The notes beneath the pieces were generated by a model that was not told the DNA's origin, ran no database searches, and was given only the letters and a program-made list of their open reading frames with translations. DNA of 39,374 nt, taken from the IMG/VR virus record IMGVR_UViG_3300045988_104640, positions 1 through 39,374 of that record; one strand, 5' to 3'. The DNA is from a virus. The position numbers were made by a program, and so were the translations under genes. Positions 7,027-36,821 of the stretch are shown here, one piece after another (the first letter of the stretch is position 1; each line of letters starts with the position of its first letter).

Positions 7027-7393
7027 TTATTTAGTTGAAAAGAGGCGGATGTTGGATAGCTTAGGACGAATGAGGGATGAGGCAATAAGTTGTCTTAATG
7101 TAGATTGCACACTTTGTCCACTCAGTAAATACGCTTCAGGTTCAGGATTTAATTGTAGAGTGTTTGAAATTGAATGTCCTATTGAAGCCACCAAAATCGT
7201 CCGCAAGTGGGCTGAGGAGCACCCGCGAAAGACGAGAAGAGATGTACTCTTGGAGAAGTTTCCGAATGTAGTGCTAAACAAAAAAGGACAACCATGTGTT
7301 TGTGCGCAAATGCTTGGATTGCGTGATTTTGACTATGTTTGCGAAGATAAAGAGGAGTGTTCGAAATGTTGGAACACGGAGGTAGAGGAATGA
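7016..7393 (+). CDS. hypothetical Cys-rich protein
   Basis: SD GGAGGTGG before the ATG, with multiple Cys clusters. Confidence 0.55.
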   Translation: MEFNYLVEKRRMLDSLGRMRDEAISCLNVDCTLCPLSKYASGSGFNCRVFEIECPIEATKIVRKWAEEHPRKTRRDVLLEKFPNVVLNKKGQPCVCAQMLGLRDFDYVCEDKEECSKCWNTEVEE

Positions 7394-10557: not shown

Positions 10558-10587
10558 AAAAAGCAAGGTGTTATGCCTTGCTTTTTT
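10558..10587. terminator. bidirectional intrinsic terminator between convergent operons
   Basis: AAAAAGCAAGG-TGTTAT-GCCTTGCTTTTTT: a stem flanked by an A-run and a T-run. Confidence 0.8.
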
Positions 10588-10595
10588 CACTTACA

Positions 10596-10796
10596 CTACA
10601 GCCCAATATAACGTCTCACTGCTCCGCCAACTGGCGTTTTGACGGTTTCGGCGAATGATTCTTCGCACTTGTCGATATATTCCGTCCCTCGCCAGGAAGC
10701 AAACGCGATTTCTCTTTCGATCATCGCTTTGCGATTGATTTTGTGGTCAACCGACTTCAAAATAACATCGCTGCACGCCGTTCTTTCTCTTTTCAT
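10596..10796 (-). CDS. hypothetical protein, 66 aa (last gene of the accessory operon)
   Basis: SD AGGAGG 8 nt before ATG 10796 (MKRERTACSD...). The track start at 10859 lacks an SD. Confidence 0.5.
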   Translation of the reverse strand: MKRERTACSDVILKSVDHKINRKAMIEREIAFASWRGTEYIDKCEESFAETVKTPVGGAVRRYIGL

Positions 10797-10851
10797 TTTC
10801 TCATCCTCCTGTCGCAATTCTATCATTTTGTATTCGCTCAAGTCAATCGTA

Positions 10852-11055
10852 TTAAGCAATCTGAACGCAAAACCTATACTGTTCTATGCCGAAAAGCATG
10901 TAGACACCTGTCATGTCATCATCGAAGTAATTACCGTAATAGGTTAAATTACCCTCTTCAGCTCTAACCTTGTTAAGTTTTACGAAATCAATGTTTTTTG
11001 CGCTACAATGCATTTCATCATGAAAATGGATTGTAGAATTTTCTGAGTATTTCAT
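10852..11055 (-). CDS. hypothetical protein, 67 aa
   Basis: SD GGAGGT 7 nt before ATG 11055 (MKYSENSTIHF...). Confidence 0.55.
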   Translation of the reverse strand: MKYSENSTIHFHDEMHCSAKNIDFVKLNKVRAEEGNLTYYGNYFDDDMTGVYMLFGIEQYRFCVQIA

Positions 11056-11066
11056 CTTTTTTACCT

Positions 11067-11112
11067 CCGTTTCGCTCTTGCTCATCAGTGCCGGACTTGT
11101 ACCGGCAGACGG
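11067..11112 (-). ncRNA. type III hammerhead ribozyme motif
   Basis: Minus strand reads CCGUC UGCCGG-UACAAGU-CCGGCA CUGAUGA GC-AAGA-GC GAAA CGG. The complete invariant core is present, with a 6-bp stem I, 2-bp stem II and 4-bp open stem III. Predicted cut after C at 11108. Confidence 0.6.
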
Positions 11113-11163
11113 GGCGGAAAGTGCCGCCGTTTATTTAATTCTTCTTGTCATGTTTTGAACCTC

Positions 11164-11316
11164 CTAAATTCTAACCCCTAACAACATACAAGTTCGTTTT
11201 GCCTCACAAAACTTAACCCAATTCTCTTTACATGGGCTTTTAATGTAGTCAGCCCTTGCCTTCTTGTATGTTTCTAATGCCTTTGGCATCGCTGTTTTCA
11301 AATCTTCGTATCTCAT
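11164..11316 (-). CDS. hypothetical protein, 50 aa
   Basis: SD AGGAAG before ATG 11316 (MRYEDLKTAMPK...). The longer track ORF would start inside the palindromic element. Confidence 0.45.
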   Translation of the reverse strand: MRYEDLKTAMPKALETYKKARADYIKSPCKENWVKFCEAKRTCMLLGVRI

Positions 11317-11375
11317 TTTTCTACTTCCTTTCTTGGTTGGCATACCGTCGGGTATGTTATGATTGAGGGTTGATG

Positions 11376-11558
11376 TCAACCCTCTTTTAATTTTCTAAGT
11401 GCGTCCCGGAAAACCTCCGTTGTGCTTTCGCCGTTGTGCTTTCGCCGTTCTACCAACGCGATTAGGTCGCTGTCGGTATCTTTTCGCAGGTTCACATGAT
11501 ACTCTGCATAGTTGGCTTTTTTCCAACGGGCTTTTACTTCGCTCGATGTCTTGCCCAT
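11376..11558 (-). CDS. ribbon-helix-helix (Arc/CopG-like) DNA-binding protein, putative operon autoregulator
   Basis: MGKTSSEVKARWKKANYAEYHVNLRKDTDSDLIALVE ... TEVFRDALRKL fits a beta-strand, helix, helix pattern of RHH proteins. Confidence 0.55.
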   Translation of the reverse strand: MGKTSSEVKARWKKANYAEYHVNLRKDTDSDLIALVERRKHNGESTTEVFRDALRKLKEG

Positions 11559-11998
11559 TATTTGAAATCCTCTTCAGTGAAATATGATGTTGCGTTATAC
11601 TCATCTTTTGGGTAGACTTGGAAGATGATATTTTTTTCTTCTTCCGGTTCTAATCCGTTCCAAAACTCTTCGGCTGCTTTGTACGCCGTGCGCGCCTCGG
11701 TGGTACCCATCGTCTGATATTCGTTGACTTGCTGCACATTTTCACCGTATCCAAAGGCTACTGTGAACTTTTGCAAATACGGGAAGTCTACAATGCTGTC
11801 GATGAAGTCTATTTCTTCTCCGTCCTCGTCAACTTCGCATTCATAAACTTCTTCGTGCATGTTGCGCAAATCATCTTTTTCGTACCAATCGTTTTCGGCT
11901 TTTTCTTTTGCCGCTGCTCTTGCTTCCTTTTCTGTGTCAAAGTAGGTGGCTGCTCCTCCGTCCTCTCCTGTCATTGTTACGATCGCATATTTTTTCAT
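11558..11998 (-). CDS. strongly acidic hypothetical protein, 146 aa (first gene of the accessory operon)
   Basis: SD AGGAGA 6 nt before ATG 11998. 37 D/E against 14 K/R by direct count. The track N-terminus (TTG at 12082) lies inside the promoter. Confidence 0.6.
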   Translation of the reverse strand: MKKYAIVTMTGEDGGAATYFDTEKEARAAAKEKAENDWYEKDDLRNMHEEVYECEVDEDGEEIDFIDSIVDFPYLQKFTVAFGYGENVQQVNEYQTMGTTEARTAYKAAEEFWNGLEPEEEKNIIFQVYPKDEYNATSYFTEEDFK

Positions 11999-12082: not shown

Positions 12083-12235
12083 CCCCTTTTTTAAATTTTT
12101 TTCAAACTTTTTTCGGCAAAACTAGCAAACCGTTGAAATTTCAATAAATTCTTAATAAAAAAAACAGCGAAACAATGCTATATTAAGTATAGGCAAAGGC
12201 CTTTTCATGGCATACTTTCATCTTTTGCCTCCTTT

Positions 12236-12261
12236 CAAATCAAAAGCCCCGGAAACGGGGC
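12236..12261 (-). terminator. intrinsic-terminator-like hairpin reading on the minus strand
   Basis: Minus strand: GCCCCG-UUUC-CGGGGC followed by UUUUGAUUUG. Confidence 0.45.
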
Positions 12262-12446
12262 AAAGGTTACTACCGGCAGGACCCGCAGCGCAGGCGGCCG
12301 GATAACAGCGCAGCATGTGCCGCGGACGCGCGGGGAATACTGCTGCCATAGACAACCCCGGAGCGCAGGACGGGACACGTTACCGAAACCACGCAGACGG
12401 GGAACGACACTATCGCGCGGATAAATGAACGCAACCGCGCGGATAT

Positions 12447-12529
12447 CGGGAATCGGTGCAGCGGGTGATGCACATCAGACTGTAAATCTGACGCTTACGG
12501 CTTAGCAGGTTCGAATCCTGCATTCCCGA
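12447..12529 (+). tRNA. tRNA-Tyr: tRNA-Tyr (anticodon GUA), class II long variable arm, no encoded CCA
   Basis: - Acceptor stem: CGGGAAU/AUUCCCG.
- D arm: GUGC-AGCGGGUGAU-GCAC.
- Anticodon arm: UCAGA-CUGUAAA-UCUGA.
- Variable arm: 13 nt, with a GCU/GGC stem.
- T arm: GCAGG-UUCGAAU-CCUGC.
- Discriminator: A73. Confidence 0.85.
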
Positions 12530-12587
12530 AATCGGGGGAAACTATACAGGAACACCCTTAAACAGTAAACCAAAACTATATTTTCAT

Positions 12588-12615
12588 AGACAGTCTTATG
12601 CAGGCTGTCTTTTTT
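12588..12615 (+). terminator. intrinsic terminator downstream of the tRNA
   Basis: AGACAG-N11-CTGTCT followed by TTTTT. Confidence 0.6.
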
Positions 12616-13163
12616 CGTGTGTAAAAAGGAAGGGAAAACGGGCAGACATTAGAAGAGGAGGCAAGCCCTCACAGGTTCCACCGCCCCAAAAAGCCGACTG
12701 ACACACGGCGCACAAGCCATACTGGCACACGCAACTATTCCGTAAATGCTATTTTTAGGAATAGTTAGGTAAGCCGCGAAGAACCCTTGCAACCGTTGAA
12801 ATTCCAACATCGTAACGCAGTACAAACAGGGCTTGCATTCCCCTGCACACACGGGCGCACAGCCCCTCGCGCTACATATAGTGGCGTGCTACCCTGCGGC
12901 GGTGATGGTCGGGGTGAATCGTAAACGCACCCACTCGCGCGCGCTTCCCCCCTATACAGAGTACCCGCACCTCTGACCTTGAATCGTAAACACCCCCACT
13001 ATTCGAAAGCAGTCTAATTTCCAAAATTAGAAAAAAATGGGCGGGATTTTGATACAGAAAATGGAAAAAGGCAACTTTGCTCACGGGCGGGATACCCGAA
13101 AAACCGACGAAATGACCTAAAATGTAATATATTAACTGTAAAATGACGAAAAGGGGATAAAAA

Positions 13164-24671: not shown

Positions 24672-26018
24672 ATGGCAAGCACAATCTATAGACAAGGGCA
24701 AGCATCATCCACTGATGTAAGAGAGATGCAAAAAGCATTAAAAGACCAAGGTTACTATAAAGGAAATGTCGATGGTATATGGGGCAATCAAACATCGTCC
24801 GCGCTATCCAACTACAAGCGAGACACAGGCGGCTCGAATACAGCCGGCAATTCATTCGGAAGAGAAACAATCGTAAAACTGTTTGGTAATCCACTACCGG
24901 GAAGCTCCGGCAGTTCATCAAGTAGAGGAAGCTCGTCCGGCAGAGGAGGTTCGTCAAGCAACAGAGGAAATTCAACCGGCAGTTTAATGAAAGGCGTTCT
25001 TGGTATGGTGTCGAATATTGCAAAAAACCCCTCACAAGCGTCACAGGCATATCTGAAATACCTACAGTCCGGAGGCAACCCAATAGGCTCTGAAAACTTA
25101 GTTGCAGACCCTAACATTAAACAGCAATGGGATGATGCACTTGCTGCTTCACAGCAATATTATGATAATGGAATCGGACAGCTTGGAAATATATACAGTT
25201 CAGGCGCAGAACAAGCAAACTTAAATGCTGACGACATGGCAAGACAGCAGTATATTATCTACAAGCAGAATAAGAATAGACTTGCAGAACAGCTTTCCAC
25301 GAACGGAATCACAGGTGGGGCGAGTGAAACGGCATTAAACAGCATATTAAATGCCTATTCTTCTAACTTATCACAGAATGAAGCTGCACGACAAGCTGCG
25401 CTTGCGAGCCTTAGAAATGAGTACCAAAGCGGTATGTCTGACCTTTTAGGACAATTACAGCAAAATCAGGCGAATATCAACTCGCAATACGGACAGCTCC
25501 AGCGTGAGGACTTGGCGAATCAGAGAGAACAGCTCGCCGAAGCGCAAAGGTCAGCGTTTGAATCTTATCTTGAGAATAAGAGTGCAAATAACACAAGTAA
25601 TTGGAATGCAAGAGTCAGTGCGAACATTCAAGCAAAGAATCCGAGATTTGTATATACGGATAATAACGGCCGACTGCATTACACCAATTCTCAGACTACT
25701 GCGGCGACTGCAAAGGCTCAAGGTTACACCGTGGTAGACAGAACAAGCTATGACAAGAAAAAGTCATCGGGAAAATCCAGCAGCTCAAAATCAAGTAGTA
25801 CGAAAAATTCAAATGAAATAGATATGTCCGTTTGGGGCGGAAGCACACCAACTAACTCCAAGCAAAGCAATTACAATGATGTCTACCGTAACGCTGCTGC
25901 ATGGAGACAACAAAAAGATGGACAAACAAAAACCGTAGATTATATAAGTAAAATGGTATCGAATGGAACAATAACAGAATCCGAGGCAAAGAGAATGCTT
26001 AAGGCTCTTGGCTTATAA
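24672..26018 (+). CDS. virion protein with an N-terminal peptidoglycan-binding domain and a Q/N/S-rich body
   Basis: SD AAAGGAGA before ATG 24672. DVREMQKALKDQGYYKGNVDGIWGNQTSSALSNYKR is a PG_binding_1-type repeat. Confidence 0.65.
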   Translation: MASTIYRQGQASSTDVREMQKALKDQGYYKGNVDGIWGNQTSSALSNYKRDTGGSNTAGNSFGRETIVKLFGNPLPGSSGSSSSRGSSSGRGGSSSNRGNSTGSLMKGVLGMVSNIAKNPSQASQAYLKYLQSGGNPIGSENLVADPNIKQQWDDALAASQQYYDNGIGQLGNIYSSGAEQANLNADDMARQQYIIYKQNKNRLAEQLSTNGITGGASETALNSILNAYSSNLSQNEAARQAALASLRNEYQSGMSDLLGQLQQNQANINSQYGQLQREDLANQREQLAEAQRSAFESYLENKSANNTSNWNARVSANIQAKNPRFVYTDNNGRLHYTNSQTTAATAKAQGYTVVDRTSYDKKKSSGKSSSSKSSSTKNSNEIDMSVWGGSTPTNSKQSNYNDVYRNAAAWRQQKDGQTKTVDYISKMVSNGTITESEAKRMLKALGL

Positions 26019-26031
26019 GGAAGGTGTGGAT

Positions 26032-29000
26032 ATGGCTATCAACTGGGATAAACTTAGAAAAAAGGCGGAAGAGGGAGACAAAGTTGCGAAAACAAGAGTT
26101 TTGACCTTAAATTCTTCCACTCAAAAGGCGAATAAAACTCCGCCTAAAAAAACAAACACAACGAAGTTACCCCAAAAGAAGGGAAGCAATGGTAACAAAA
26201 TCACACAAAATAATAGTGTCAAGTCTCGAAAATTACCTAAGGCAGGGAAGGAAGCGCAAAAAGAAGTATTCCGCACAAATCCTATTGCAGCAGGATTAAA
26301 AAGTTTTAATGAAACAGTCATTAACGATGTTGCTTTAGCACCCGTGAGCATACCGTATCAAATCATAAAAGGAAAAAAACTGGTTGATTTTGGGCTTGAC
26401 GCAAAGACAAAAAGTGCAAAGAAAGGGGAAGCCGTTGGAAAACTTTTGGGCGAAGTAGCAGGCTATGCGTCGGGCTATGGGGCAGCCGGAAAAGCTACAT
26501 CGAAAGCGGCAAAAAAAATACTTTCTACCAAAACAGGTAAAAAAATTGTAGAAAAGGCAATATCAAGTAAGGCTGGAAAAAAACTCGGCAAAGATGTTGT
26601 TGATAAAGTCTTGAAAAGTGCAACAAAGAGTGCGGTGGCAGACGCAACCGTGGGAACAACTTTAAATCTCTCTCATGCGCGTGGCGAAGGGAAAAAGGGA
26701 AAGGAACTTGCAACAGATATTGCACAAAATGCGGCACTTGATTTTGGATTAGGTGCGGTTGGTGAGGCACTTCCGCTTGCAGGCAAAGGCTTATCAAAAC
26801 TAAAAGGCAAACTGAAAGACACGCATTTAGAGACGCGTATTGTCGATGGGAAAGTGAAAAATGTGCGTGTTGAGGGCAAAGCTGACACTGCAAAAAAAGT
26901 AGCTGAAAGCGGAAATTTAAAGGTTAAGACAGGCACTCCGAGAAAGACAAAACTTCCTACAAAGAGTGAAAAGGCTGCATTAGAGGCCGTGTCAACCGCA
27001 GGGAAGGTCAGAAAAACTACATCTAAAAATGCTGACGAAATTGCCGACGAAATACTTAAAGGTGACTTGCGTTCGGCACGCGGACAACAGGAATTTGCAG
27101 ACGAATACTTGTACGAGTTAGAGCGACTTAAAGAAAGAAATCCTATTCCAATGCCTGAAAGGAGACCTAAAACAAGCGAAATCAAAGTGAAAGCCCCTCC
27201 GCCAATCAGACAAGCACAAAATGAAATCAAAGTCACTCCATCAGGCAGAGAAACCAAAGTCGGCGGATTCGATGTTGAAGGAAGTCAAAATCTCGGTATT
27301 ATAAATCCTGATATAAAGACGGTTCAAGAAGCAATGGAAAGCGCAAGCGGAAAGTTTGATAGGTTCTACAAGGCTACTGTGAACCAGCAACACGAAATTG
27401 ACAGGCTTTCTAAGGCTTCCGGTGACAGGAGAGCGGCAAACGCCGTGCAAGCGGTGCGCAGCTCAAGCGGAACATCAGAATACATATTCACTAAAAAACT
27501 CGTAAATCCAAAGGGTGATGTCATTGATAACCGTTCATTTAAGGAGGTGTTTCAACCAGTATCAAAAAACTCAAAAGAGTTCAATATTTATGCTCAAAAT
27601 CTGAACAATATTTCACGATGGAAACAGGGGAAACCATTAGATGTGAATGTGTCGGCGGAGGAATCTCAAAGAATTGTCAATGAAATCCTTTCGAGACACC
27701 CCGAATTTGCACAAATAACCGAAAACATCAACGATTATTGGAGAAAATTTACGCATTCATGGCTTGTTGACACGGGAAGAATGAGTGAAAACGCTTGGCA
27801 AGCGATGATTGACAAGTATCCGAATTATGTTCCGGCGTTCATGAAAGATAAGGGTGTAAAGGTAGGCGGAAGCAAGTTTGCTGTTGACGCAGGAACTAAG
27901 GGAGCGAAAGCAGGCACTACGCTTGACCGTGTACCAATTGAGGATGCAATGATGGAACAGGTACAGCAGCTTGTAAACTCCACGCGCAAGAACGATATGT
28001 ACCTGAGTGTAATTGATACGCTTCGTAAAGACCCTGAAAATCTGAAACGGTTTGGCGTTGTAAAAAGCGAGACTTCGCCTGTCACGGGAACAGATATTGA
28101 CGAGTTTTTATCTCTTGCAGACCAAGAAGCACTCAAAGAGGTAAATTCCAAAGTTTATACCATCTCAGCAATGGAAAACGGACAGAAAGTTACTGCTTAC
28201 ATCAATAAAGATTTGGCAGAAGCATTTGGAAAGCTTGGAAATGTTATCGGCTCACCGAATATGCAGATTGCGGCAAATGTTGGCAAGAAAATCACCAACC
28301 CAATAAAAGCAGGAATCACAGGGTATAACCCGCTTTTCGCAGTAGCTAATGCTACAAGAGACATTCCTACTGCCTTAATTCAGTCTGAATATGGTATGCT
28401 TAAAACCACAAAAAATATGTTTCGTGGCATTAAAGAAATGGCTACAAACGGCGAAATGTGGCAGAGGTATCTTGCTTTAGGCGGAAGGTCATCGGGGTAC
28501 ATCAGTGCTCACAAAGGTTTTGAAAAGTCTCTTGCCTTTAGCAAAAACCCAATAAGGGGCATTTGGGAAGGCATGAAAACCGTTTTAGGTGCTGTAGGTG
28601 AAGCGACGGAATCTATTCCAAGATTTGCCGAGTTTATGTCCTCTATGGAAAAATACGGAGATGTTTCAAGAGCATTAACAGAATCAGCAGAAGTAACGGT
28701 CAACTTTTCAAGAGCAGGTGAAGTTACAAAATTCCTTGACGCATGGACTTTGTATCTAAATGCAGCAGTGCAAGGTATTGATAAGTTTGTCAGAACCGCA
28801 AAGGCACACCCGGTAAGAACCGCGGCGAGAAGTCTTGAAGTCGTCGGTGTACCTTATGCACTTCTGATGGCAAATAACTGGTCGAATCCTCATTACCAAG
28901 ACCTCAACGACAGAACCAAGCAGAATTATTTCTGTATTCCGAACATGGCAGGAGAATATGACGAAGACGGGAATGCGAAAACCTTTATCAAAATTCCACT

Positions 29001-30348
29001 TAATAGGGAATATGGTACTATTTTCGCTTCAACAATGGATGTTATCGCAGGATATTTGAGCGGGGAAGCCAATCCGTGGAACGGATACGCAGAAACGGTT
29101 CGAACAAACTTCTTGCCGCCGAACCATCTAACAGACAATGTTTTAGCACCGCTTGTCCTCAATTTACCGCAAAACAAGGACTTTGCGGGGCGTTCTATCG
29201 TTCCGAAGAATCTTGAAAATGTTTCTCCGCAGCTTCAATATGACTACTCCACAAGCGGACTTGCTAAAGGCATCGCAAATGTAGCGAATAACCTTAGAAT
29301 ACCGTCAGACACCTTAAAAAGTCCGATGAAAGTCGATTATCTTCTTGACAGTTTCGGCGGATATTTAGGGCAAGTAGGTCAAGCGGTAACTGACCCGCAG
29401 CTGCAGGGTATCGGGGAAAGAATCAAAGGGGCTACGATTGACCCGTTTGTTGATAGATTTACCGCAGACCCGCGTTTTTCTTCGGGGGTAGTATCTAACT
29501 TCTACGATGAAAAAGAAAAAGTTGAGCGAGCTGCCAATGACGAAAAGATTTTGACCGGGGGAAAAGGAAAAGGCTACATCGAGAATAAGACATACACGGC
29601 AATTCAGCAAGAACTTTCTGACCTGTCAAAGAAGGAGCGGGAAATCCTTTCCGGGAACTTATCAAAGGCAGAAAAGGACAGACAAATAAAGGCGATTCGT
29701 GAGCAAAAAAATGAAATCGCACGAAGTGCAAGTCAAAGAGCGCAAAAGGCTGTCAGCGATTACAACGAGGCACCGACTTATGAGACAGAAATGAGCAAAC
29801 AGCAGAAGGATAGCTATGAAAAGAAGTTTAAACCGCTTGGAGTTAGTAAAGAGGAATATGCAAGCGCAAAAGCTATTGCGAGTGATTATGACAGCAGCGT
29901 TGCAAAAGCGTATGCACTTTTAGAAAACGGACAGTCTGAGGAATTGACAAAAGCAATGACCTCACAAAATGCTATCGAACAGGCTACCTTGTTAAAATCC
30001 AAAGGAGTTACACTCGAATCTGTGAATGAAGCAAAAACCATTCTCAAAGAAAGCGGATATAAAAAGTCCATCGGACAAGCATATGCGCTTCTTGATAACG
30101 GACAGTCCGGGGATGTGGCAACCGTTTTAACATCAGAGCGGGCGGTTCAGCGTGCAACCTGGCTGAAACAATCCGGTGTGACACCAGACCAGCTTGATAG
30201 TATCGCAGATACTATTGACGCAAACGGAAATGGAAGTTATAGCAAAGATGAGATTATAGCTTTCTTCAATCAGTACGGCGGATTTACCACCGCACAAAAG
30301 AGAGCCATTTTCTTGGCACTTAGTACGGCGAAAAACAGTCCATACTAA
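26032..30348 (+). CDS. very large virion/ejection protein, 1438 aa
   Basis: SD AAGGAAGGTG before ATG 26032. Lys-rich N-terminus, a large central domain, two ~58-aa C-terminal repeats and an EF-hand-like loop DANGNGSYSKDE. Confidence 0.6.
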   Translation: MAINWDKLRKKAEEGDKVAKTRVLTLNSSTQKANKTPPKKTNTTKLPQKKGSNGNKITQNNSVKSRKLPKAGKEAQKEVFRTNPIAAGLKSFNETVINDVALAPVSIPYQIIKGKKLVDFGLDAKTKSAKKGEAVGKLLGEVAGYASGYGAAGKATSKAAKKILSTKTGKKIVEKAISSKAGKKLGKDVVDKVLKSATKSAVADATVGTTLNLSHARGEGKKGKELATDIAQNAALDFGLGAVGEALPLAGKGLSKLKGKLKDTHLETRIVDGKVKNVRVEGKADTAKKVAESGNLKVKTGTPRKTKLPTKSEKAALEAVSTAGKVRKTTSKNADEIADEILKGDLRSARGQQEFADEYLYELERLKERNPIPMPERRPKTSEIKVKAPPPIRQAQNEIKVTPSGRETKVGGFDVEGSQNLGIINPDIKTVQEAMESASGKFDRFYKATVNQQHEIDRLSKASGDRRAANAVQAVRSSSGTSEYIFTKKLVNPKGDVIDNRSFKEVFQPVSKNSKEFNIYAQNLNNISRWKQGKPLDVNVSAEESQRIVNEILSRHPEFAQITENINDYWRKFTHSWLVDTGRMSENAWQAMIDKYPNYVPAFMKDKGVKVGGSKFAVDAGTKGAKAGTTLDRVPIEDAMMEQVQQLVNSTRKNDMYLSVIDTLRKDPENLKRFGVVKSETSPVTGTDIDEFLSLADQEALKEVNSKVYTISAMENGQKVTAYINKDLAEAFGKLGNVIGSPNMQIAANVGKKITNPIKAGITGYNPLFAVANATRDIPTALIQSEYGMLKTTKNMFRGIKEMATNGEMWQRYLALGGRSSGYISAHKGFEKSLAFSKNPIRGIWEGMKTVLGAVGEATESIPRFAEFMSSMEKYGDVSRALTESAEVTVNFSRAGEVTKFLDAWTLYLNAAVQGIDKFVRTAKAHPVRTAARSLEVVGVPYALLMANNWSNPHYQDLNDRTKQNYFCIPNMAGEYDEDGNAKTFIKIPLNREYGTIFASTMDVIAGYLSGEANPWNGYAETVRTNFLPPNHLTDNVLAPLVLNLPQNKDFAGRSIVPKNLENVSPQLQYDYSTSGLAKGIANVANNLRIPSDTLKSPMKVDYLLDSFGGYLGQVGQAVTDPQLQGIGERIKGATIDPFVDRFTADPRFSSGVVSNFYDEKEKVERAANDEKILTGGKGKGYIENKTYTAIQQELSDLSKKEREILSGNLSKAEKDRQIKAIREQKNEIARSASQRAQKAVSDYNEAPTYETEMSKQQKDSYEKKFKPLGVSKEEYASAKAIASDYDSSVAKAYALLENGQSEELTKAMTSQNAIEQATLLKSKGVTLESVNEAKTILKESGYKKSIGQAYALLDNGQSGDVATVLTSERAVQRATWLKQSGVTPDQLDSIADTIDANGNGSYSKDEIIAFFNQYGGFTTAQKRAIFLALSTAKNSPY

Positions 30349-36410: not shown

Positions 36411-36821
36411 AATGCAAAAGAAAAACGGCACATCTTACACTGTACCGTTCTTCTTCCGAATTGTTTACCTTTCGTACCTTGCACAACTTACAAACAATTT
36501 CATCGTGAATCAGTTTCTGCGCTTCCAAGCGAACGATGGGATTTCTGCGCTATTCCCAGCGGTGAGTTGCAAAATGTTGGCGTGTAAGCACCAATCTAAA
36601 GGGGTACGCTTCGACTTTAGCAGTTCGGTTTGCTTAGGCTTTCCAGCCTTAATGCAGTCGGGTGGCAAGTATCGGTATAACCGATGTTGTCACAAAGGCA
36701 CACGAGAAATAAAAAGCTGTCCACACAGGGAAATCAGCCCCCTTTCTCGGGCATAACTGACAAGCTACTCTGCTTGCCGCCTCGATTGCATTATACCACA
36801 TTCTATAAGAAAGGAGAGACA
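36411..36821 (+). other. long untranslated leader / candidate structured RNA upstream of cro
   Basis: No SD-preceded ORF. The only ORF (36412-36756) has atypical F/C/S/R-rich composition. Stable hairpins at 36636-36649 and 36662-36693. Confidence 0.45.

Follow-up and report, generated by a model that had tools for sequence, protein, structure and literature searches.

A type III hammerhead motif with a conserved layout in an accessory operon of a temperate phage

Does a short RNA motif between two small genes of a phage accessory operon represent a genuine self-cleaving ribozyme, and what could it do there? This question arose for a stretch of 39,374 nucleotides (nt), the IMG/VR virus record IMGVR_UViG_3300045988_104640 (positions 1 to 39,374, hereafter called the window). 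Its minus strand carries a sequence that a first-pass annotation, made from the letters alone, had described as a type III hammerhead. We propose, with a probability of roughly 75%, that this motif is a true hammerhead ribozyme of type III, lying in the sense orientation within an accessory operon of five genes, and that a co-transcriptional cut splits the operon mRNA in two. If this holds true, a real ribozyme was called correctly from raw sequence by a reader without tools.

Sequence and anatomy of the element

Read on the minus strand from 11115 to 11064, the region has the sequence GCCCCGUC UGCCGG UACAAGU CCGGCA CUGAUGA GC AAGA GC GAAA CGGAGG. Between 11112 and 11067, all invariant hammerhead positions are present in the order expected for type III, which confirms the first-pass reading base for base. 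The assignment is based on this direct reading, the Rfam model RF00008, two family models (R1 and R2, see below) and covariation in relatives. The element is composed of the following parts, bp denoting base pairs:

11067..11112, minus strand: type III hammerhead ribozyme
C11112 C11111 G11110 U11109, minus strand: 5′ strand of stem III (CCGU)
A11070 C11069 G11068 G11067, minus strand: 3′ strand of stem III (ACGG), an open helix of 4 bp
A11070-U11109, minus strand: A15.1-U16.1 pair
C11108, minus strand: C17, in the cleavage triplet GUC
11107..11108, minus strand: predicted scissile bond
11107-11102 with 11094-11089, minus strand: stem I, 6 bp
11101-11095, minus strand: loop 1, 7 nt (UACAAGU)
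11088-11082, minus strand: core CUGAUGA (C3-A9)
G11081 C11080 with G11075 C11074, minus strand: stem II, 2 bp, with G10.1-C11.1 formed by G11081-C11074
11079-11076, minus strand: loop 2 (AAGA)
11073-11071, minus strand: G12 A13 A14

Loops close stems I and II, and both RNA ends exit through the open stem III; this type III topology is evident from the order of the sequence and from the alignment to the Rfam model Hammerhead_3. Under standard hammerhead numbering, the bond predicted to be cut lies 3′ of C17 (C11108) and 5′ of U1.1 (U11107), which is the position named in the first-pass annotation. The expected products would be an upstream RNA with a 2′,3′-cyclic phosphate end and a downstream RNA with a 5′-OH.

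The heptamer CTGATGA was counted seven times in the window, compared with 4.6 occurrences expected by chance, and the six further copies sit where they had been reported (near 1107, 3521, 9301, 9451, 22321 and 34322). One additional candidate at 7192-7239 on the plus strand, with CUGAGGA and GAA, reached 12.6-13.3 bits (E = 0.05-0.12). We judged it a chance match because its stem I is broken, two bases are inserted before A15.1 and it lies inside a 125-amino-acid (aa) open reading frame (ORF).

Conservation and covariation among relatives

Relatives of the element were collected by pattern scans. The 20-mer CTGATGAGCAAGAGCGAAAC is present in 38 IMG/VR contigs, all of which show the same architecture except for the degenerate locus L028. 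A scan anchored on loop 1, with stem II left free, retrieved 56 viral loci, and its metagenome counterpart at least 120 loci. Eight metagenome-assembled genomes (MAGs) of Bacillota and Bacteroidota and one contig binned as archaeal came from a genome scan. Together, the contigs found by pattern scans in viruses, metagenomes and MAGs yield more than 100 distinct relatives. The element thus belongs to a large and tightly conserved group in gut and rumen phages.

Since CUGAUGA was fixed in every search pattern, its invariance in the two alignments described below (A1 and A2) adds no support. The remaining elements are more informative. Stem II with its loop reads GC-ANGA-GC in 33 of the 35 distinct sequences from the loop 1-anchored scan. 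Loop 1 is kept if stem II serves as bait, and stem II and loop 2 are kept if loop 1 does.

Stems I and III vary in sequence and retain pairing. Across 107 distinct members, pairing is complete (100%) at positions 1.1-1.4 of stem I, where three kinds of pair occur at 1.4 and five at each of 1.1-1.3. For positions 16.2-16.4 of stem III, the paired fraction is 94-100%, and four to five kinds of pair are seen. Beyond the fourth pair of stem III, pairing drops to 68%, 50% and 35%, so that the true stem III comprises about 4 bp, as in the window. In the same set, the A15.1-U16.1 pair is U-A in all 107 relatives, N17 is C in 101, U in five, A in one and G in none, and G10.1:C11.1 is G-C in 105 and G-U in two.

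The first-pass annotation had proposed compensatory changes in homologous loci as a check, and they are found in stems I and III, with controls far lower. In alignment A1 (35 sequences), 94.3% of the positions are paired and the covariation score is 0.419, compared with 0.098 after shuffling; none of 500 shuffles reached 0.419, and sliding the partners gave at most 0.113. Alignment A2 (57 sequences), from which the window's own lineage was excluded, gave 97.6% pairing and a score of 0.602 versus 0.134. G-U wobbles in the stems are confined to the hammerhead strand. Because such wobbles would be A-C mismatches on the opposite strand, selection acts on the RNA of the hammerhead strand.

Among covariance models, the Rfam one gives an ambiguous result when taken alone. 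In a local scan of 301 nt, the Rfam model Hammerhead_3 (RF00008) aligns over its full length (model positions 1-54) with 29.6 bits; the E-value of 1.4e-4 for these 301 nt corresponds to about 0.02 if rescaled to the whole window. The family models score much higher, R1 with 79 bits and R2 with 71.9 bits (E = 1.9e-21). R2 was built from A2, that is, from 57 relatives excluding the UGCCGG lineage to which the window belongs, and its next-best match in the window reaches only 13.3 bits.

The family consensus is UANNAGU for loop 1 and (N)NGA for loop 2. Loop 1 has a 5′ U and a 3′ U and loop 2 a 3′ A, which fits the loop-loop motif of natural type III hammerheads described by Dufour et al. (2008, PMC2632901). 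Inspection of the alignments revealed neither a pseudoknot nor covariation between the variable positions of loops 1 and 2. The three innermost pairs of stem I (CGG/CCG) are almost invariant in the family, which suggests an additional contact outside this motif. Judged from these near-invariant pairs and the 2-bp stem II, any loop contact may differ from the published one.

Some copies depart from the common form. Locus L024 carries three tandem copies (1144-1199, 1470-1525 and 1931-1986, all on the minus strand) that bracket two single small genes of 126 aa and 78 aa. Its most upstream copy, which was found by a covariance model instead of a pattern, shows a U4-to-C change in the core (CCGAUGA). 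Divergent or degenerate copies occur in L027 (574-644, minus strand) and L028 (7330-7386, plus strand), with 32.7 and 41.7 bits for R1, respectively. The L028 copy has lost U16.1 and its stem I is rearranged; it occupies the same operon position as in the window's relatives. In L066 (6492-6547, minus strand), a MAG binned as Candidatus Woesearchaeota, the context is very AT-rich and stem III consists of A and U only (UUUU/AAAA), whereas neither the GC-rich stems I and II nor the two loops are altered. This suggests strong selection on the unaltered parts, or else phage or bacterial DNA in an archaeal bin.

Recurrent layout around the ribozyme

Two features of the window directly precede the ribozyme:

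11113..11128, minus strand: GC-rich hairpin GGCGG-CACUUU-CCGCC, from sequence and fold, with no gap to the 5′ strand of stem III
11131..11151, minus strand: micro-ORF MTRRIK (AUG ACA AGA AGA AUU AAA UAA), with the Shine-Dalgarno (SD) sequence AGGAGG at 11165-11160

We derived context statistics from 123 distinct family contexts, 120 of them with enough upstream sequence. In 78 of the 123 contexts (63%), a strong hairpin (ΔG ≤ –8 kcal/mol) ends 0-4 nt upstream of stem III, compared with 23% of random 45-nt windows from the same loci; the mean ΔG is –13.8 kcal/mol for the contexts and –6.9 kcal/mol for the random windows. The hairpin sequences are unrelated between lineages, and pairing is kept. 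Within the window's lineage, the 3′ arm is near-identical (CUUUCCGCC versus CUUUUCGCC), the 5′ arm differs (GGCGG versus GCGAAAAG), and pairing is again kept. By coaxial stacking, the abutting hairpin may stabilize the 4-bp stem III. On the plus strand, the hairpin at 11113-11128 is followed by GTTTATTTAA and scores like an intrinsic terminator in a consensus scan. It could also halt antisense transcription arriving from the convergent genes; the T-rich tail on the plus strand is absent from most family members.

The surroundings of the hairpin and the ribozyme are equally stereotyped. A same-strand ORF ends upstream in 108 of 120 contexts, at a median distance of 21 nt before C17. Downstream, in 99 of 123 contexts (80%), an SD sequence and the start codon of an ORF of 30 or more codons occur within 80 nt. 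The median start lies 25 nt after GAAA and the median downstream ORF encodes 70 aa; in 25 of the 99 cases, the start codon is no more than 15 nt from GAAA. The recurrent module consists of a gene end, an abutting hairpin, the hammerhead and the ribosome-binding site (RBS) of a small gene, and the intercistronic space is almost wholly taken up by hairpin, ribozyme and RBS.

The coordinates of the SD sequence of the next gene, of the hairpin and of the micro-ORF with its AGGAGG all match the sequence. The AGGAGG at 11165-11160 overlaps the TAG stop codon (11166-11164) of the upstream gene, and judged by its good SD sequence and spacing, the micro-ORF may well be translated. It is present as described, but does not generalize beyond L007, which is 95% identical in this region and reads MRRIK. 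In L009, L012 and L014 the micro-ORF is absent, and the homologous upstream gene ends inside the hairpin. Because its sole sharer is one close relative, the micro-ORF is probably incidental to the ribozyme, and we rejected it as part of the device.

Operon structure and proposed processing

The window represents a temperate phage; among its products are a tyrosine integrase, a large terminase and a portal protein, and a small terminase is matched weakly. Nearly all of its genes lie on the plus strand. The ribozyme is found in a minus-strand block running from 11998 to 10596, which is flanked by the last plus-strand gene before the packaging module and by a tRNA-like element. The features of this block are:

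12261-12246, minus strand: terminator-like hairpin preceding the promoter-like site (consensus scan only)
12186..12213, minus strand: promoter-like site (consensus scan only)
11376..11998, minus strand: two promoter-proximal genes of 146 aa (gene 1, 11558-11998) and 60 aa (gene 2, 11376-11558), from the ORF list, conserved in L007, L042, L046 and L049 (BLAST)
11164..11343, minus strand: gene 3, upstream of the ribozyme, 59 aa from a conserved MPTKKGS start (the mechanical ORF in the ORF list, 71 aa, begins at TTG 11379)
10852..11055, minus strand: gene 4, downstream of the ribozyme, 67 aa (MKYSENST...), from the ORF list
10596..10826, minus strand: gene 5, the last of the operon, about 76 aa from AUG 10826 (the mechanical ORF in the ORF list begins at TTG 10859)
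10558..10586, minus strand: terminator-like hairpin closing the operon, from a consensus scan, facing convergent plus-strand genes

The N-terminus of gene 3 is shared with L042, and homology to the relatives ends near 11310. At the position of gene 4, the relatives carry unrelated small genes. Conservation of the closing terminator hairpin amounts to 97-100% over 29-32 nt in L028, L030, L042 and L046; in L007, a longer stretch is conserved at 82%. Taken together, the minus-strand block looks like an autonomous transcription unit. The proposal that cleavage would split its mRNA into a three-gene and a two-gene half fits the ORF map as well as the promoter-like and terminator-like sites.

The encoded proteins offer few clues. 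Against Pfam and PHROGs, the five operon proteins gave no match, except for a weak, sub-threshold match of gene 5 to a VapB-antitoxin-like Pfam family. Ten downstream proteins of relatives gave almost nothing against Pfam, only one helix-turn-helix protein; a common function of the cargo did not become apparent. A BLAST search of 10600-11600 against GenBank phages returned no match, and therefore no annotated relative. Several of the genes just behind the ribozymes in L022, L044, L064, L068 and L024 encode very acidic, helix-rich proteins without a Pfam match. Perreault et al. (2011, PMC3088659) noted hammerheads ahead of the anti-restriction gene ardA; a link of the small downstream genes to anti-defence is only a guess.

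From what is established on hammerhead chemistry and bacterial mRNA decay, we infer how the RNA would be cut, which ends would result and how stability and translation would be affected. Once the polymerase has passed 11067, stem III would close with its 4 bp, probably stacked on the hairpin 11128-11113, and the RNA would then cut itself between C11108 and U11107. The 5′ product would contain genes 1-3 and end with the hairpin followed by CCGUC and a 2′,3′-cyclic phosphate. Such an end resembles that left by a terminator and should resist 3′ exonucleases, without the polymerase having been stopped. The 3′ product would carry genes 4 and 5, with its 5′-OH paired at once in stem I, and its leader would consist of the rest of the ribozyme, the SD sequence 3 nt after the core and then the AUG. 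The two halves of the operon would become separate mRNAs whose stability and translation are mutually independent, and the downstream small gene would gain a fixed 5′ leader regardless of the upstream sequence.

The ribozyme and the Shine-Dalgarno sequence of gene 4

11064..11068, minus strand: SD sequence GGAGG of the 67-aa gene, 8 nt before the AUG at 11055-11053

The ribozyme had been described as fused to this RBS, and exposure of the SD sequence had been suggested to be coupled to ribozyme folding. Carried further, this would amount to a cleavage-dependent switch, in which stem III masks the SD sequence until cleavage and only the processed mRNA is translated. We consider such a switch unlikely. 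The 3′ strand of stem III (CGG) does run into GGAGG, but only the first two G residues (G11068 and G11067), which form the last two pairs of stem III, are shared, so that the helix holds two of the five SD bases. The next potential partners of the SD sequence, C11113 and C11114, are part of the upstream hairpin. Several lineages (the L002 group) have a 6-bp stem III, CUCCGU/ACGGAG, that covers most of the SD sequence, and in 25 of 99 cases the start codon is within 15 nt of GAAA; a cleavage-dependent switch would correspond, in nature, to engineered hammerhead RBS switches. Across the family, however, the SD sequence begins inside stem III in just 26 of 123 contexts, the median start being 25 nt downstream, and L005 has the same CGGAG stem III, yet its real SD sequence lies farther downstream. 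The fusion to the RBS thus exists at this locus to the extent of two bases, but the overlap is not general.

It also appears that such an overlap can arise by deletion. L042 resembles L007 with one gene removed between two ACGGAGGT tracts, and this pair of loci illustrates how an SD sequence could end up overlapping stem III. Finally, in a thermodynamic comparison the predicted mean unpaired probability of the SD sequence is 0.30 in the precursor and 0.24 in the 3′ product. Predicted accessibility does not rise after cleavage, which leaves the coupling of SD exposure to folding weak at this locus, and we rejected unmasking of the SD sequence as the main mechanism here.

A conserved island between variable genes

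The closest relatives of the window are L007, L028, L030, L042, L046 and L049. Those whose loci extend far enough have in common with the window, besides the terminator, the tRNA-like region, both promoter-proximal genes, the opening ∼11 codons of gene 3 and the ribozyme island 11123-11055. The genes between these anchors vary in identity and number. In L030, L042, L046 and L049, homology to the window amid otherwise differing cargo is limited to 11123-11055, and in L007 it reaches 11253. The L002 group carries the same ribozyme and hairpin ahead of either an 80-aa or a 151-aa gene, and a homologue of the 151-aa gene is located upstream of the ribozyme in L042.

Such a mosaic could mean that the ∼55-nt, near-invariant ribozyme serves, mainly or additionally, as a patch of DNA homology for the exchange of accessory genes between phages, with cleavage being secondary. 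In favor of this cassette junction, homology is confined to an island amid different cargo with shared promoter-proximal genes and a shared terminator, one and the same ribozyme with its hairpin precedes differing downstream genes, the 151-aa gene homologue occurs on the other side of the ribozyme in L042, and family members are found in MAGs of both Bacillota and Bacteroidota. Nevertheless, the covariation preserves RNA pairing including strand-specific G-U wobbles, N17 is never G and the core is invariant, and these are rules of a ribozyme that a DNA recombination site does not need. A mosaic of this kind would result just as readily if a selected RNA element were simply the one conserved sequence amid variable genes. 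We therefore regard this explanation as very unlikely, less probable still than the RBS switch.

In a broader version, hairpin, hammerhead and RBS might form a portable "cassette boundary" module of gut and rumen phages. Hairpin and ribozyme would take the place of a terminator and leave a protected 3′ end while the polymerase continues, the ribozyme remnant would provide each small downstream gene with a context-free leader, and the near-invariant 55 nt would serve as the homology for gene swaps between phages of different bacterial phyla. This is a speculative extension, and we think it doubtful. If it were true, the module would parallel integron-like cassette systems on the basis of a ribozyme, and synthetic ribozyme insulators would have a precedent in nature.

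Points against a functional ribozyme

The proposal of a genuine, operon-splitting hammerhead has to be weighed against several observations. First, its score of 29.6 bits with Hammerhead_3 is below the gathering score of 48.5 bits, so that membership in the curated model is not supported, and scans of the whole window with Rfam, at the gathering threshold or by E-value, list no hammerhead; at the gathering threshold, the only match is a tRNA-like one. Second, stem II shows no covariation, being almost invariant and now and then lengthened to GGC/GCC, and comparison therefore gives this stem no independent support. Third, the minimum-energy fold of a 141-nt RNA pairs CGUC with GAUG and does not form stem III, which makes an inactive alternative fold possible according to the model. 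Fourth, the view of the minus-strand block as an autonomous transcription unit is based on consensus matches only. Fifth, in Firmicutes a 5′-OH end can attract RNase J1, as in the case of glmS, and cleavage could therefore destabilize, not stabilize, the downstream half. Last, the review by Weinberg et al. (2019, PMC6765202) still describes the role of hammerheads in bacteria and phages as unsettled.

The low Rfam score is mostly due to the stem II region, which is 4 nt long instead of ∼12 nt in the model. None of 13 hammerhead copies in ten related loci reaches the Rfam gathering threshold, and standard annotation therefore overlooks this hammerhead group. We regard the sub-threshold score as a property of the model and its threshold; it is neither a flaw of the motif nor a biochemical criterion for the class. 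The covariance-model search recommended in the first-pass annotation thus returned a full-length match below the gathering score. That annotation had named such a score as refuting evidence if combined with homologues that lose the core or break stems I and III without compensation; the score is indeed sub-threshold, but the homologues keep the core and compensate in both stems. Its main caveat, the 2-bp stem II, is no objection, since GC/GC with an A-N-G-A loop is the norm of the group. According to Perreault et al. (2011, PMC3088659), a stem II of 2 bp and a weak stem III are common in natural hammerheads. As judged from sequence, the element has every hammerhead feature open to testing here, the curated Rfam score threshold being the sole failure. 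What sequence and comparison show directly is the motif with its conserved core, the covarying stems I and III, and the recurrent layout.

That the motif is a chance or decayed sequence without cleavage, with its conserved hairpins serving otherwise, for example as a terminator for antisense transcripts, is hardly tenable: the sub-threshold Rfam score, the very short stems II and III, the terminator-like score of the plus-strand hairpin 11113-11128 with its T-rich tail and the core changes in some relatives (CCGAUGA in copy 1 of L024; the degenerate L028) stand against more than 100 distinct relatives that keep all catalytic nucleotides and compensate in two stems, an E-value of about 1e-21 with an independent model, the lack of a T-rich tail on the opposite strand in most members, and the finding of Perreault et al. 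(2011, PMC3088659) that 14 out of 18 consensus-conforming hammerheads were active.

Other features of the phage and its relatives

The tRNA-like element next to the minus-strand block (12447-12529, plus strand) scores 50.6 bits with the Rfam tRNA model; ARAGORN calls no tRNA in the window. It has extra D-loop bases and an 11-nt variable region. The element is conserved, with Rfam tRNA matches in L007 and L028 and 88-96% identity in L007, L046 and L049, and may represent a tRNA of unusual form or else a tRNA-like or att-related sequence. A GC-rich stretch of ∼500 nt (12100-12640), located between this element and the start of the operon and lacking a convincing ORF, is conserved at 68-96% in L007, L028, L042, L046 and L049, and might hold a leader or a non-coding RNA.

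Three additional observations concern other regions. A sub-threshold match to FuFi-1 RNA (RF02986) at 36419-36658 on the minus strand extends over the full model length (41.9 bits versus a gathering score of 59.6, E = 7e-6) and adjoins the integrase/regulator region. At 26008-30348 on the plus strand, the window encodes a 1446-aa protein with an LPD38 "large polyvalent protein" domain. The phage contig L010, which also carries a hammerhead, contains an RT-18 RNA (RF03021) at 10802-10875 on the minus strand, with 64.5 bits and a threshold of 41.3.

Comparison with known systems

The finding leaves the knowledge of hammerhead chemistry or distribution unchanged, and a specialist would not be surprised by it. 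Hammerheads in prophage operons, 2-bp stems II and tandem gene-flanking copies have been known since 2011. We add, modestly, a quantified layout of hairpin, hammerhead and RBS and its position as a conserved island in a variable accessory operon. What emerges is a large and tightly conserved set of type III hammerheads, carried by gut and rumen phages and missed by routine annotation because it falls below the Rfam threshold, with more than 100 natural contexts sharing one stereotyped layout, often in hypervariable accessory operons. This stereotyped layout makes the hypothesis of operon splitting or insulation directly testable, and the family is convenient for tests of its role.

The closest precedent are the prophage hammerheads of Perreault et al. 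(2011, PMC3088659), whose gene-flanking examples bear out the remark in the first-pass annotation that hammerheads are known from prophage intergenic regions. They were proposed to process long phage transcripts into shorter mRNAs, and three native tandem prophage arrays were shown to cleave in vitro. Both groups are intergenic, lie within same-strand blocks of phage genes and combine a stem II of 2 bp with a weak stem III. In both, several copies sometimes flank single small genes, as in L024 here and in Clostridium scindens, Agrobacterium and Azorhizobium there; the proposed role in transcript processing is also the same. That paper stresses bacterial type II hammerheads with pseudoknots, whereas the group described here belongs to type III, shows a loop-loop layout and lacks an obvious pseudoknot. 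The abutting hairpin and the tight spacing to the RBS, which we quantified, are not mentioned in the relevant passages of that paper. This exact sequence group was not found in its supplementary text or in a text search of the literature, the coverage of which did not include Jimenez et al. 2011.

The loops resemble the CChMVd-type motif (Dufour et al. 2008, PMC2632901) in that loop 1 has seven bases, begins with U and carries a pyrimidine on its 3′ side, and in a loop 2 ending in A. In contrast, the 3′ U of the window's family is the last base of the loop, not the penultimate one, and with a stem II of 2 bp instead of about 4-5 bp the geometry of any contact must differ. Compared with the viroid, satellite and other members of Rfam RF00008, the core and topology are the same and the alignment is full-length, but the score is 29.6 versus 48.5 bits and the stem II region comprises 4 nt versus about 12.

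Self-cleavage in bacterial mRNA is not restricted to hammerheads. The glmS ribozyme cleaves itself in the 5′ untranslated region and governs the fate of its mRNA via RNase J1. As in the case proposed here, a 5′-OH left by self-cleavage determines the stability of the downstream coding RNA. Yet glmS belongs to another ribozyme class, depends on a metabolite, is located in a 5′ untranslated region and not between cistrons, and its cleavage destabilizes the mRNA.

Engineered elements provide the nearest parallel in design. RiboJ, said to come from Lou and colleagues in 2012, and the RBS-masking hammerhead switches reportedly built by Wieland and Hartig and by Ogawa and Maeda, both in 2008, are synthetic. 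Like the element in the window, such insulators and switches reportedly place a hammerhead directly 5′ of an RBS, and cleavage is said to strip off upstream RNA and leave a fixed, hairpin-protected leader. In the engineered switches, the SD sequence is reportedly paired within a ribozyme stem. RiboJ is described as having an added hairpin downstream of the ribozyme, in contrast to the conserved upstream hairpin found here. The analogy to synthetic insulators may apply to the way in which the phage element could work, not to its descent.

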